From assembly GCA_964016885.1 (NCBI GenBank), contig CAXHJY010001673.1, forward strand, positions 69,366 through 133,365: 64,000 bases of DNA, in the 5' to 3' direction. Within the stretch, counting starts at the first letter, position 1. Each line of letters opens with the position of its first letter. Made by a program: the position numbers and the translations under genes. The stretch is from Eledone cirrhosa. Lineage: Eukaryota. This document shows positions 1,781 through 52,105 of the stretch, piece after piece. The notes beneath the pieces were generated by a model. It did no database searches. It saw only the letters and a program-made list of their open reading frames with translations, and had not been told where the DNA came from.

Positions 1781-1958
1781 CCAGTGGGTGTAACTAGGAG
1801 TTACTGCAGGTTTACCCGGGTGAGCACTCGATGTTTAGGTTCACTTCTGTGATGATGTGTAGAGCTATACAGAGTGTAAAATATAGAAAGGATAAAAAGG
1901 ACGATTGATTATTCCTTCGTTGCATTTTATTGATAGGTGACGCGCGTTTCGCCACTGA
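1781..1958 (-). mobile_element. 5'-truncated ribozyme element in (TA)n with the 3' half of a hammerhead
   Basis: Minus strand reads GC-GAA-ACGCGCGU-C^ACC (1939-1950), then AATAAA, and a tail with GAGTGCTC (1822-1829). Homologous degenerate copy at 55960-56040. Confidence 0.6.
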
Positions 1959-2554
1959 TATATATATATATATATATATATATATATATATATATATATA
2001 TATATATATATACATATATATATATTGGTAAACGGAATAGAAAATGCTGACAAATTGTTCACAGTTGAAAAATGGTTTAATTAGGAATAAAAGAGTATTA
2101 GTGATTGTATGGGTTAGTATTCAGTTGTGGTTTTAAGTTTTTAAGTTTTTACCGGTTGCGCATTTCTAAATGCTTTTCAAAAATAATTTTGAGATAGAGT
2201 GTCCGTGCTGTTTGCTCTGATCTGATTAGTTTTGGGAATTCTACCTGTTTTTATGTTAAAAAAGTGGCTCCAGCGTTATTTTTGTGTTGCAAAAATGCTT
2301 GTGGTCAAAACAATTTTGATTGGTCGGTAGAGGTCATGTGAATGTAAAAAGTTGATTTTGCGCCAAGACTGTATATATATATATATATATATATATATAT
2401 ATATATATATATATATATATATGCAAAGTTTTATTTAAATTGTTGGGTTAACAACGAGTAAATATTTATAACTGATATAAAAGCACTCAACAAGTATTTG
2501 GAGTATATTTACGATATTAAATAAATGGAAACTATATTTATAAAACCATATTTA

Positions 2555-2616
2555 TTTCATTATATATATTTCAGGGATATCATATTAAAAATATGTTATG
2601 CCTTCTTCAGACAAAA
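2555..2616 (-). ncRNA. Type I hammerhead ribozyme (left arm copy)
   Basis: Reverse complement of 2713-2774. Confidence 0.7.
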
Positions 2617-2712
2617 TACAATATAAACAGTCTTATAAATAGATAGATTCGACATACCTTTCAACTTCGACTTCTATTTGAAAAGTTGATTTATAAGACT
2701 GTTTATATTGTA

Positions 2713-2774
2713 TTTTGTCTGAAGAAGGCATAACATATTTTTAATATGATATCCCTGAAATATATATAATGAAA
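2713..2774 (+). ncRNA. Type I hammerhead ribozyme
   Basis: UUUUGU-CUGAAGA-AGG...CCU-GAA-AUAUAUAU-A^AUGAAA. Intact core, stem I 6 bp with two GU pairs, palindromic stem III. Confidence 0.7.
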
Positions 2775-4389
2775 TAAATATGGTTTTATAAATATAGTTT
2801 CCATTTATTTAATATCGTATATATATATATATATATATATATATATATATATATATATATATATATATATATATATATATATATATATATAACATGTGAA
2901 GTGAATTGAACGATTTCATGGTGTTTTCGAATGGCTTAGATGAATCTTCTTGATACAATTCCTATAGTTTCAATACACAATCTATGATCAAGTCACTTGC
3001 TTGAGAAATATATCTGAAATTTCTTAAAATGGTCTGTCCACTAATAAGTCAATAATTATGACAACATACTCTCCTCTTCGTTGATATATCTGACTTAGTA
3101 TAAAATTGTCTACGGCCATAGACCAATCTCTCTCTCTGTGTCTCTCTCTCTCTCTGTCTCTCTCTCTGTCTCTCTCTGTCTCTCTCTCTCTCTCCCTCTC
3201 TCTATCTCTCCCTCTCCCTCTCCCTCTCTCTCTCCTCTCCTCTCCAATCTCTCTTTCCTCTGACGGTTTCTCTCCTCTCTTTCCTTCCGTCTATCTATCT
3301 GTCGCTTTCTCTCTTTCTCTCCTGCTCTGTCTGCATGCCTCCCTATCTGTCTCTCCGATCTCTCTTTCCCTATCTCCCCCTCTCTCCCTCTCTCTCCCTA
3401 TCTCCCCTCTCTCCCTCTCCCTCCCTTCTATTCAACTTGAATCAATGTCAAGTCTTTAATAGTCTGGTGTAGACTCAGTAGCGATATTTCTTTTCCTAAA
3501 CACCGCACTAGACTGTACAGTAATGACGGAAAATCCTTTCTGCGGCTGTCAACATATGTCCTTAATAATTTACGTTATTCGGAAGGTCTAGTTTAAAGCT
3601 GCACCATTGAAATATATAGCAAGAACAAGTACAATCTGACGAGGGTTTAATTTGAAGGTTATCAATAAAGGGAGATAAGAATGTTGTTGGGTTGTCAATG
3701 TAATTTGGAGCATGTTTATTCCCTAACGAATAGAAAAGAATTAATAGATTCTCACATCATCACCAGCATTAGACTTAAATGTTGCTAATTAAATGACGTG
3801 TCAGTGTGTAATCAATAAACTAGCCACACAATATATCGACTGCCATATACAACATACACACTGTATCACATAATATAACTACGCTCACCATCATACAATA
3901 ACACAGTATTATTCACAATATCACACATACACACTATATCACATATTTCAATTCGCCACCATATAACAACACACTATTCAATTTCTATTAGTGAAAACTT
4001 TGATTTATCTCCTTCTATAATTTCTATCATTCGTTCGGTCTCGTGACGCTAATTTTTGTGACTGCGCTATTATCATACGTGCCTACTATCACCGAACTCA
4101 CCAATGCTTCTAAACACATATTCAAGTCTCCTTTATTAGTATTAGTATTATTAGTTCTAACACCAGACTTACAACCTCAAATCAAAACACTTTCGTTGCA
4201 ATCATAAAACACTGCATTATTTAAAGTTGTGATAATCAATGACTTTTAATATGTACTCAAACATATTACATTACTAAATAAGATATTCATAAAGGATACT
4301 CACTAAGTCACTTCCTCTCAACGTAGTATGATGTTGTTGCTGAAGCAATATACAATACTACCTGTAGGAAAGAATGCATGCATGGTCTC

Positions 4390-4580
4390 GTAACCTTTGA
4401 GGGAGTCTTAGGGACACTCTGTAGACATTCGGCATTACTAGGGCATATTTACTTAAACCTGGTGGAGCCCATCTTCTTTACAGGTCTGAATACAACAGAT
4501 TTCTCCCAGAGAGAGAGAGAGAGAGAGAGAGAGAGAGAGAGAGAGAGAGAGAGAGAGAGAGAGAGAGAGAGAGAGAGAGG
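4390..4580 (+). mobile_element. Unclassified interspersed repeat (retroposon-like 3' end followed by (GA)n)
   Basis: aaacctggtggagcccatc..caggtctgaatacaacagatttc is shared with minus-strand copies at 14510-14630 and 21960-22040. Confidence 0.55.
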
Positions 4581-4907
4581 AATTGAGAAAATTATATTGC
4601 AGAAAGAATCGATCCCAGTACTTGGCTGATATTTTTTTTTTATCGACTTCGAAAGGATGAAAGGTAAAGTTGACCTCGTTCTAACGACTCTGTCAATTCG
4701 CTACCTGTAGGAAAGAATGTACTGGTATAAATACAGAAAAGATATTATTTTTTTGATTTAAGATAAGCTCCAGTTTCCACAGCTTGTATGGGATTCTCTG
4801 TTTAAGCAACTTTACATCATTCATGGTCAAAATTCAGTTTTTACCTTCTTTAAATTGCAGCAATTTGTGCCTAATGAAATTTAACCATTATTATAATTAC
4901 AATTAGT

Positions 4908-49579: not shown

Positions 49580-49876
49580 CAGGCATGGGCAACCTTTTTC
49601 TAGAAGCGAGCTGCATGAGATATGGCTCATCATCAGGCGGGCTCCAAGCGGTAATTTACATTCGTGTCCACATTAAAAAAAAAAAAGGGGGCAGTAACTC
49701 AGGTTGTTTTGATTTGTTTCTTCAGAATTCGTACACGTTGTTTTCCTCGATCGTAAACATGATAGAAAGATAAATTACGACTGAAAAGTTGTGGTGAAAA
49801 AATCAGAAAGATTTCACTTAGGTAACTTAGGCGGGCAATTCAGAAAGCTTCGCGGGCCGCAGGTTGCCCATGATTG
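49580..49876. mobile_element. hAT (Charlie-like) MITE
   Basis: TIRs caggcatgggcaacct / aggttgcccatgattg, subterminal gcgggccgc, degenerate 8-bp TSD ctttaagt / ccttcagt. Confidence 0.75.
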
Positions 49877-50519
49877 CCTTCAGTCATTGTTAGCAACTAC
49901 ATATAGTACAGTACTATCAACCTAGTTATACGCGATGAACTGTGAAATCTTGTCAGGTCGGCTGAGAGAAGCTTTGATATATTTCAATATATAGACTAGA
50001 TGCCATATACTATCCTTGATTTGTGGCCAAATGACACGAAAACCTTATTATTTCATCGGTTCTCTTTACTGACTGATTGGTCCCAATGGAGGTCAGTGAT
50101 GGCGTGAGCTGTCCGAATTGTTGGTCTTACAAACTGATAAGGAGGACAAAGGGACGGAAAAAGTTTCCACTACACCACTCCACACCACTTCTGGCTCTTA
50201 CCGATATATATATATCGACACACACACACACACACACACACACACACACACACACACACACACACACACACACACACACACACACACACACACACACACA
50301 TACACACACAGACATACACACGCACACACACACACACACATATATATATATATGTATATATATATATACTTCTGTTCACATATTCCTGACAGGGGCTATA
50401 TACACATATATATATATATATATATATATATATATATATATATATATATATATATATATATATATATATATACATATATATATATATATATATATATATA
50501 TATATATATATATATATAT

Positions 50520-50620
50520 ATAGGAAAAAGTATGACCCCGACGGCAGAGCTCAAGCCGAGTATTGAGTACTCTGGTGCGTTATGGTCCATCTGGTTCCTT
50601 ACTACAATTCCTTTGTTTTA
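50520..50620 (+). mobile_element. Family A element (internally deleted)
   Basis: taggaaaaagtatgaccccgacggcagagctcaagccg joined to agtattgagtactctggtgcgttatgg tail. Confidence 0.85.
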
Positions 50621-51040
50621 TATATATATATATATATATATATATATATACACAGAAACACACGCACACACACACACACATACACACACACGCACACACA
50701 CACCCACATGTATATATGTGTGTATGGATGTATAAATATGTGTGTTTGTGTGCACTAGGATGGGTGTTGAAAGTATCGAAGTTTCATTGTATGTAAAACA
50801 GTTCACATTAACAGAATGTGTGTACACAATGTTTCAGCCTAGTTGCTTCATCTGTGTCCTGCAGAAGTAATATCTTCCCCCCACCATCTCTCTCTCTCTC
50901 TCTCTCTGATTATATGTATATACATATATACCTACATATATCTATATCTATATATCTCTCTCTCTCTCTCTCTCTCTCTCTCTCTCTCGCTCTCTCTCTC
51001 TCTCTCTATATATATATATATATATATATATATATATATA

Positions 51041-51305
51041 TATAGGAACGAGTAGGACCTCGACGGCTGAGCTCAAGCCGTTTCGACGGCTAATTCTGGA
51101 CTCTACTACCCTAAGTATTGAGTACTTTGGTGCGTTATGGTTCACCTGGTTCCTTACCACATTTCCTCCGTTATATATATATATATAGGAACAAGTAAGA
51201 CCCCCGGGGGTCTTACTTGTTCCTATTACCCACTCTACTACTCTAAGTATTGAGTACTTTGGTGCGTTATGGTCCACCTGGTTCCTTACAACATTTCCTC
51301 CGTTA
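51041..51305 (+). mobile_element. Two tandem family A elements
   Basis: 51041-51173 (inverted arm plus tail) and 51185-51305 (42-bp perfect palindrome plus tail). Confidence 0.9.
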
Positions 51306-51359
51306 TATATATATATATATATATATATATATATATATATATATATATAATATATATAT

Positions 51360-51788
51360 CACGATAAATTAACGGAGGCATAGGCCCTCGCTATTCCCTG
51401 TTTATTCTAGCAGTTCGTCCCTCAGAGGCCACCGGTTCACTGCCCTTAAACACGCTGTGACTCCTCTCTCCCACGTGTAGCTGGACAGTCAATTGTAAAA
51501 TTCTCTTAGTGTTGTCTGAAATGTATGGCCTTACACACGCTGATGAACCGAGACTAGACCATTTCTTTCAACAAATTTTTGGTGAAACATATCTTTGGAT
51601 TTGTACGTGTGTTATATAGTTATAGAGGTATTTATTTACGCTTTAATTTATATTTTTAATTATCGTGTCTATAGTCTGCCTCTCATAGGTTATAGATTCC
51701 ATGCACTGGTGGTTTTTCCCCTGTATTATTGATAACGCACTGTATACACGTATCTCTCTCTGGTGTGTTACCTTTTCAACATATTGTA
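51360..51788 (+). mobile_element. ~430-bp ribozyme element between (TA)n tracts
   Basis: Non-repetitive island bounded by TA tracts, containing a canonical hammerhead. Confidence 0.7.
51533..51612 (+). ncRNA. Canonical type I hammerhead ribozyme
   Basis: ACACACG-CUGAUGA-ACCGAGA...UUUUGGU-GAA-ACAuAUC(uuug)GAUuUGU-A^CGUGUGU. Stems of 7, 7 and 6 bp, GUA triplet. Confidence 0.9.
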
Positions 51789-52105
51789 TATATATATATA
51801 TATATATATATATATATATATGTGTGTGTGTGTGTGTGTGTGTATGTGTGTGTGGGTGTTTGTGTGGGTGTTTGTGTGTGTGTGTACTGTAATGTACGAA
51901 CGCAAGTACAGAGCACTCAATACATTGTGAATAGATTATAAGTGTATGTGTTTGCATGTATGTGTATATATATATATATATATATATATATATATATATA
52001 TATATATATATATATATATATATATATATATATACATATATATATATATATATATATACATACATATATATATATATATATATATATATATATATATATA
52101 TATAT

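Follow-up and report, generated by a model that had tools for sequence, protein, structure and literature searches.

It has been known for decades that Penelope-like elements (PLEs) possess an optional tail. In other systems, a small bulged stem-loop bound by the reverse transcriptase (RT) fixes the start or stop of synthesis, as in the template-flanking elements of telomerase RNA and in hepadnaviral epsilon. In 2024, the tail boundaries of PLEs were identified as sites at which the RT starts: in Poseidon_Ac, initiation takes place internally at two tail boundaries, both strands are extended, the reaction needs RNA downstream of the start, and a dimer is predicted (Frangieh et al. 2024, PMC11167929). 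The available text describing the Hydra clade of PLEs (Craig et al. 2021, PMC8557442) mentions no tail hairpin or tail motif, and the term "stem-loop" has zero occurrences there.

Here, we analyzed a 64,000-nucleotide stretch of the Eledone cirrhosa genome (the window; GenBank assembly GCA_964016885.1, contig CAXHJY010001673.1, positions 69,366 to 133,365). Five tail families, four of them among the sites cited in the first-pass annotation, were traced to coding masters, and judging from motifs and element architecture they represent pseudo-LTR (pLTR) ends of Hydra-clade PLEs. As in the published clade (PMC8557442, as far as available), we find a C-terminal endonuclease, RW[K/R], DKT, and CxCx5C; (TA)n targets and candidate minimal hammerheads; and direct plus inverted pLTRs with a one-ended tail. 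The differences are longer tails (∼75–140 nt here versus 30–40 nt there) and a family A unit of 3.5 kb, compared with <3 kb stated for the clade.

In the masters, which are inserted in (TA)n, an RWK-type motif replaces GxKF/Y (RWK in F3; RWR in A, B1, and F4; decayed in F2), and DKG is changed to DKT. The CxCx5C linker precedes a C-terminal GIY-YIG-type domain in A and B1 (by pattern) and in F3 and F4 (by eye). The CX2–5CxxC linker is missing, and in A, F3, and F4 the segment separating the GIY-like from the YIG-like word holds no cysteine pair, so that the CCHH finger is absent. The hammerhead core pattern is present in B1, B2, F3, and F4, and the core of family A is deviant. Masters A and F3 share 42% protein identity over 712 amino acids, and A shares 24% over 291 amino acids with a Neptune-like protein in a pairwise comparison. 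Because Pfam returned no family match for the F3 ORF, the endonuclease assignment rests on motifs. No PDB match to the master A protein was found, and Rfam returned one chance match (E 2.5) on the master A junction, with no hammerhead or other family; in the window, the best 150 of 313 Rfam rows were repeat-driven and below the gathering score.

Other PLE groups fit less well. The CX2–5CxxC linker and CCHH endonuclease of Neptune-like PLEs are absent from the motif-bearing masters; the Neptune-like loci of the E. cirrhosa genome, which have the linker, show no GAGTRCY at their 3′ ends among the loci listed, and most elements retrieved with a GIY-YIG search were Neptune-like and lacked the motif. 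Naiad PLEs possess an N-terminal endonuclease and DKA, whereas the masters exhibit DKT and a C-terminal domain; by eye, the tail motif is absent from three octopus Naiad consensi. A look-alike hairpin in Naiad_Mmer lies ∼500 nt from the element end and is probably due to chance.

The first-pass annotation had reported a GAGTRC(T/C) motif 42–60 nt from the 3′ end of otherwise unrelated tails. We confirmed GAGTRC at all nine cited sites. Counted from the motif start, a (TA)n run follows after 50 nt at 1829(−), 67 nt at 2488(−), 48 nt at 9953, 51 nt at 18302, 50 nt at 26110(−), 52 nt at 32380, 55 nt at 38891(−), and 52 nt at 43514. The exception is 51918(−), where (CA)n follows after ∼28 nt and (TA)n first appears at 98 nt. 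The reported range holds, this exception aside, if distances are counted from the motif end. The tails themselves are not unrelated, since all five traced families appear to be Hydra-clade elements; the motif was probably inherited within the clade, yet kept while the flanks diverged.

Among 204 junction flanks of the window, 17 sense matches, mostly family A copies, lie 50–59 nt from the junction. We also analyzed 79 unselected 10-kb stretches (790 kb) with 659 clusters, including 109 multi-copy clusters. Five of the 109 carry GAGTGC 40–70 nt from the junction, compared with 0.25 expected (p = 6 × 10^−6, uncorrected). Among the multi-copy clusters, GAGTGC ranks 3rd of 4096 hexamers, behind two hammerhead-core words; with all 659 clusters counted it lies outside the top 20, and the distance histogram per cluster is weakly peaked. 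Measured from the 3′ end, positional enrichment is thus real at the family level, but modest, and the proposed fixed distance to that end is not retained, as the spacing between hairpin (see below) and 3′ end spans 36–107 nt.

The tails are predicted to form a bulged RNA hairpin, RCTC-[stem-loop]-bulge-GAGYRC, in which GAGTRC makes up the 3′ arm. The unit is therefore the hairpin and not the linear word: the fourth pair co-varies (A-T in 11 families, G-C in 3), so that GAGCAC and GAGCGC are also members. In a test for this hairpin, 47 of 90 motif sites 40–70 nt from a microsatellite were positive, versus 29 of 536 elsewhere (p = 5 × 10^−26, counting copies, not families); in the window alone, the numbers were 14/26 and 2/38. 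The enrichment of the hairpin near ends is much stronger than that of the motif relative to the 3′ end.

Pairs were counted in 14 families, drawn from 19 of the 39 hairpin clusters listed; F11, F13, F17, F27, and F36 were left out as uncorroborated or atypical. The lower stem (C-G, T-A, C-G) is found in 14/14 families. In the inner stem, the letters differ among families and the pairing is kept, with C-G, T-A, G-C, A-T, and G-T pairs. Pairing of cognate arms in 14/14 families is built in by family selection; non-cognate arms swapped between families pair in 48 of 182 combinations. A 3-bp inner stem, on which no selection was made, occurs at 44 of 59 near-end sites with an upstream RCTC, versus 7 of 65 far sites. 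The loops range from 2 to >60 nt, and the flanks of the motif fall into separate clusters. In the 14 families, an invariant unpaired RC follows the stem, and the bulge is pyrimidine-led. The common variants in family A hairpins (best 40 of 49 rows) comprise four in loops and one leading to a G-U pair; G-U variants on the sense strand are found in subfamilies of B1, F2, and F6 and in the second hairpin of family A.

The first-pass annotation had also suggested folding the tails, which was the appropriate test. The pairing pattern points to a shared hairpin, but energy models give the sense-strand lower stem a probability of <0.1 in 7/14 families, A and B1 included. In several families, the lower stem folds better on the antisense strand; a probability of >0.6 is reached in 9/14 families for the antisense strand, compared with 6/14 for the sense strand. 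The modeled energies thus disfavor the hairpin in half of the families (7/14), which would count against the anchoring of the RT proposed below.

The hairpin is spaced more tightly to an upstream insertion end than to the 3′ end. Tail-less copies end at a site (T1) that lies most often 6–8 nt upstream of the hairpin (hairpin 1). Among ends lying no more than 12 nt from the hairpin, 6–8 nt is the commonest distance in 7 of the 11 families with stumps; in the remaining four, the top distance is 11–12 nt or tied. Moreover, a second hairpin (hairpin 2) is located 6–8 nt behind the tail end (T2) in five of six read-through elements, 15–90 nt before the first ATG of the ORF. Among the matches listed for contigs on the family A master, obtained without a probe, loose (TA)n ends occur at two places, 5–8 nt before hairpin 1 and 3–6 nt before hairpin 2.

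Read-through copies were sought by RCTC after T2 alone, with no GAGYRC partner required; the partner was present unasked in family A (340 matches), F4 (8 matches), and F2 (4 loci). The F2 search was dominated by (CA)n, with four true copies among 100 listed of 188 matches. In F3 and F12, the second hairpin was seen although the search demanded neither arm. B1 has a deviant hairpin 2 (a 4-bp stem with a different sequence, bulge absent, 9 nt from T2), the inner stem of hairpin 2 is 1 bp in F2 and F4, and two sequence searches found no B2 read-through master. Both ends coincide with 1–3-nt T/TA matches, and many other TA dinucleotides of the family A pLTR are unused as ends.

Fold-back insertions combine the two ends. 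Of 38 fold-backs, 32 could be classified as 31 T1+T2, 1 T1+T1, and 0 T2+T2, i.e. 31 mixed-end fold-backs versus 16 expected (p = 10^−7), in a set that was not de-duplicated and may take in a few overlapping loci. The features of the window are compiled in the table.

Table. Hairpins, hammerhead cores, and insertion ends in the window
Feature	Position	Strand	Basis and remarks
Hairpin 1, family F4	1824..1875	−	Sequence; long loop; element ∼1780–1957; master has Hydra-type ORF, hairpin 2 six nt after tail end
Hairpin 1, family F2	2483..2504	−	Sequence; tail-bearing arm of fold-back 2423–2817; master has Hydra-type ORF, hairpin 2 eight nt after tail end
Hairpin 1, family B1	9938..9958	+	One lower-stem change, fails strict test
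Fold-back element holding B1 hairpin 9938..9958	∼9818–10000		
Minimal hammerhead core, B2 pLTR	18213..18236	+	Pattern match; by eye against available File S2 of PMC8557442
Decayed hairpin 1, family B2	18286..18307	+	Intact in relatives L002–L010
Hairpin 1, family B1	26105..26125	−	Master has Hydra-type ORF, deviant second hairpin
Minimal hammerhead core, B1 pLTR	26168..26191	−	Pattern match
Family A fold-back	32231..32431	+	Tail-less inverted arm (T1) and tail-bearing arm (T2); flanked by (TA)n runs
Hairpin 1, family A	32360..32385	+	
Further family A motif copies	6479, 20710, 38679, 46090, 46189, 54982	−	
Further family A motif copies	25669, 37218, 44663, 44841, 50565, 51120, 51252	+	
Long-loop variant, family F36	38886..38962	−	By eye; RCTC, 2-bp inner stem, ∼60-nt insert, 1-nt bulge, GAGYRC
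Hairpin 1, family F8	43493..43519	+	Sequence; 6-bp inner stem, compensatory changes in L055 and L074
Decayed/truncated copy	51913..51932	−	Motif kept, hairpin test failed, tail short
Tail-less end (T1), autonomous Hydra family F3	1477..1502	+	∼6–10 nt before hairpin 1
Further F3 tail-less end	54609–54630	+	
Further F3 tail-less end	flank ending at 6587	−	

Each hairpin probably serves the RT as an anchor, with copying begun from nicked (TA)n DNA at a point just upstream. Hydra-clade elements carry this predicted hairpin twice, a few bases behind each insertion end. The hairpin would fold in the sense RNA and be bound by the element protein, as the spacing and the fold-back pairing suggest, and initiation on the (TA)n primer would be internal, just upstream of the hairpin. 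Both target strands would be primed on a single RNA, each at one of its two hairpins and possibly by a dimer. As hairpin 1 would be copied solely upon priming at T2, the motif would come to lie ∼50 nt inside tail-bearing ends, and these ∼50 nt would represent the spacer between the two signals. The first-pass suggestion of a shared cis signal for the RT or endonuclease remains the best reading in this altered form, with hairpins behind both ends in place of a linear word at a fixed 3′ distance in unrelated tails. More tentatively, the two hairpins might serve as rulers: a dimeric, telomerase-related RT would grip one hairpin with each subunit, and each subunit would prime one strand of nicked (TA)n DNA 6–8 nt upstream.

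Genomic ends identical to those expected from anchoring are predicted if the hairpin directs a cut in the RNA a few bases upstream, by a host nuclease, an element protein, or self-cleavage, followed by target-primed reverse transcription from the new 3′ end. The invariant unpaired RC and the pyrimidine-led bulge would suit a recognition or catalytic site. However, a cut at T1 removes the tail, so that the 31 of 32 T1+T2 fold-backs would need two templates; Poseidon_Ac, according to the available text (PMC11167929), uses unprocessed RNA; and the junction matches no Rfam family. We therefore regard such processing as unlikely. T1 and T2 could also be stops and not starts, similar to the template boundary of telomerase, if an antisense RNA is the template (or the second strand is synthesized on cDNA) and the hairpin halts the polymerase 6–8 nt ahead. 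The better antisense folding of the lower stem is in line with this, and an antisense template has been proposed for Penelope elements (PMC3846280, as far as available). Against it, the tolerated sense-strand G-U pairs correspond to A-C mismatches in the antisense strand, a hairpin of 7 bp, being weak, would block poorly and have no need of an invariant sequence, and Poseidon_Ac sense RNA works in vitro (PMC11167929, available text), which renders such stops rather improbable.

It also seems quite improbable that the hairpins serve in protein binding or packaging, or influence transcription or translation close to where the ORF begins, with the start sites set by a nearby T/TA primer match. 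The location of hairpin 2 ahead of the first ATG, the T/TA matches at both ends, and the scattered spacing in some families would agree with such a role, but many other pLTR TA dinucleotides are not ends, and the spacing recurs at both hairpins in masters as distant as A and F3. Finally, the motif could reflect plain shared ancestry or an unstructured double-stranded DNA word, such as a promoter or endonuclease site. The traced families all fall within a single clade, the folding energy is weak, and it has been reported that the endonuclease requires the Penelope tail to recognize plasmid DNA (cited in the available text of PMC11167929). Yet the arms change together, pairing of the inner stem persists although its letters differ, and loop lengths and flanks vary widely. 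This co-variation already largely refutes the explanation, leaving it highly improbable, and because both arms co-vary, the promoter element put forward in the first-pass annotation is not favored either.

The hairpin is a candidate for what sets the tail boundaries, as it lies at a near-fixed distance behind both. This short signal is kept from E. cirrhosa to coral and sea cucumber. Its function would reveal the way in which telomerase's sister group places its template and how short non-coding copies are mobilized, and the hairpin can be used as a marker for annotating Hydra-type repeats. The ruler arrangement, if true, would explain the optional tail and asymmetric fold-backs of Hydra-clade elements and provide a portable signal by which internal initiation could be programmed.

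In the literature searched, which covered few subscription papers and Repbase reports, we found no description of this hairpin. By eye, and within the available part of File S7 of PMC8557442, it can be recognized in published Hydra consensi: Hydra-1_Ajap from sea cucumber shows twin hairpins at its 5′ end, hairpin 1 is present in Hydra-2_Ajap and Hydra-2_Amil, and Crog, Amil-1, and Obim, the others of the six, are deviant or hard to call. As with the minimal hammerheads described in PLE pLTRs (Cervera and de la Peña 2014, PMC4209133), the hammerhead core lies upstream of T1, and a pLTR region with a hammerhead core is likewise known from animal retrozymes (PMC7229834; bioRxiv 10.64898/2026.07.22.740005). 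Downstream of both the hammerhead and T1, the hairpin forms an element of its own, and the available text of PMC4209133 and of the retrozyme accounts does not describe it. Its resemblance to telomerase RNA elements and hepadnaviral epsilon is meant as an analogy alone, with no homology claimed. The closest functional parallel is Poseidon_Ac (PMC11167929, available text), where two start sites bound the tail, as two hairpin-marked ends do here. Poseidon_Ac, however, starts inside a stem-loop rich in AC and without target homology, with no conserved signal named, whereas the elements described here belong to a different clade and exhibit a conserved hairpin 3′ of each end together with a 1–3-nt T/TA match; this difference in start placement and target match would count against anchoring.

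The motif GAGTRC(T/C), which the first-pass annotation had placed about 42–60 nt from the 3′ end of otherwise unrelated tails, is present in the window at all nine sites cited, and in eight of them a (TA)n run lies 48–67 nt downstream of the motif start; the site at 51918 lacks this spacing. The host is an animal with a (TA)n-rich genome of 3.0 Gb. Because the motif matches in the window are mostly copies of one family, we ran the test on 79 unselected 10-kb stretches. For the 109 multi-copy junction clusters in them, GAGTGC at 40–70 nt ranked third of 4096 hexamers (5 observed versus 0.25 expected), behind two hammerhead words, but it fell outside the top 20 when all 659 junction clusters were counted. 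Positional enrichment of the linear word relative to the 3′ end is real, but modest.

The tails share a predicted structure: the motif is one half of a hairpin and not a linear word. RCTC, located upstream, is complementary to GAGY, and the two arms enclose an inner stem and a bulge of 1–2 nt. Near a microsatellite, 47 of 90 motif sites show the hairpin pattern, versus 29 of 536 elsewhere; in the window the corresponding counts are 14 of 26 and 2 of 38. Across 14 families, three pairs of the lower stem never change; the fourth pair is A-T in 11 families and G-C in the other 3, and the position beyond shows no consistent pairing; RC follows the paired part in all 14. The letters of the inner stem vary by family, whereas its pairing is kept, and arms swapped between families pair in 48 of 182 combinations. 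At sites not selected on the inner stem, it is present at 44 of 59 near-end versus 7 of 65 far sites. Energy models speak against it, supporting a hairpin on the sense strand in no more than 6 of the 14 families and giving a probability <0.1 in 7. The case for the hairpin rests on co-variation, and a protein may be needed for folding.

Copies in the window display Penelope anatomy: pseudo-LTR (pLTR) fragments that are short and in many cases folded back, together with hammerhead cores and an extension that is present on a single arm. Searches for read-through copies, started from families A, B1, F2, and F4 of the window, reached coding masters bearing diagnostics of Hydra, a clade of Penelope-like elements; B2, F8 (43514), and F36 (38884) lie outside this traced set. 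In family A, tandem units of 3.5 kb contain open frames that span ∼784 residues from stop to stop. Searching the genome with a Hydra RT pattern produced 390 matches and identified family F3, stumps of which occur in the window and whose 5′ pLTR contains the hairpin. The motif also occurs near the 3′ end of the published consensi Hydra-2_Amil and Hydra-2_Ajap and twice at the 5′ end of Hydra-1_Ajap; the Crog, Amil-1, and Obim Hydra consensi are deviant or unclear. It is absent from the 3′ ends of Neptune-like elements in this genome and, as read by eye, from three published octopus Naiads. Further elements are listed in the table.

Further elements in the window and at loci (L) of the same genome
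Location	Strand	Observation
39082–39360	39163+, 39280−	Pair of copies from a motif-bearing family, inverted tail to tail, with a short palindromic center rich in TA between them; motifs 40 nt from the end; opposite to the usual head-to-head fold-back
43315–43565	+/−	GAGTRC tail (+); end resembling the 39163 family, with a 13-nt word also in a published Naiad 3′ UTR (−); possibly a chimera
2026–2371; L037, L040, L063		Neptune-like, likewise with two (TA)n-flanked end sites; tail ∼40–60 nt with a short stem of other sequence, which could be an analogous signal
53530–53684		Perfect fold-back hammerhead stump, 40-nt tail without GAGTRC; microRNA call (top Rfam match of the window) spurious
24373–24927		Frame reminiscent of a fragment of non-LTR retrotransposon RT sequence in antisense
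L194:5770–5850	−	Family A master; deviant hammerhead, long stem II with large loop, first core strand altered; most stumps retain just the second half
L198 (G000:C9:23834500-23838500)		Tandem array of ∼195-nt B1 units (hammerhead, hairpin 1, T2 read-through, ORF start); retrozyme-like, non-coding
L172/L173		257-nt unit of family A
L003–L010		Family B2; hairpin 1 loop region contains the yeast-type branch-point heptamer, probably by chance because other families lack it

Copies end at two positions, T1 without and T2 with the tail. The motif lies 36–107 nt from T2, depending on the family. Among ends ≤12 nt from the hairpin, the commonest distance from T1 to RCTC is 6–8 nt in 7 of 11 families having stumps and 11–12 nt or tied in the other 4, partly owing to repeat-length shifts. 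A second hairpin behind T2, predicted beforehand, was found in read-through masters 6 nt past T2 in A (340 genome matches), F3, and F4, and 8 nt past T2 in F2 and F12 (one copy); B1 has a deviant stem at 9 nt. The query in A, F2, and F4 was RCTC alone, and the partner arm turned up although it had not been demanded. Common variants within the family A hairpins fall in loops or yield G-U. A probe-free contig alignment on the family A master placed loose (TA)n ends at the same two positions. Of 38 fold-back insertions, 32 could be classified, and 31 of these join a T1 end to a T2 end (16 expected); a small number of the counted loci may overlap.

Because each signal falls just beyond the sequence that is copied when its own end is used, it would be expected to work on the template and not on the product. 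Less likely, the ends could arise from processing of the RNA ahead of the hairpin, the hairpin could arrest synthesis on an antisense template, or it could serve for binding without fixing where synthesis starts. The simplest model, and the likeliest, is protein binding to the hairpin combined with upstream priming. The protein would bind the hairpin within read-through RNA, and the nicked (TA)n strand would prime a few bases upstream, at a T/TA match; two hairpins would serve the two target strands, leaving one arm without and the other with a tail.

Earlier publications already cover this class of elements, its (TA)n target, its hammerheads, and its tail on one side. In the article text searched, no account emerged of conserved twin hairpins placed behind the two ends; they are a real cis element, apparently one not yet described for this known clade. 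For Poseidon_Ac, internal initiation at both tail boundaries with extension of both strands has been reported, and a dimer was predicted.
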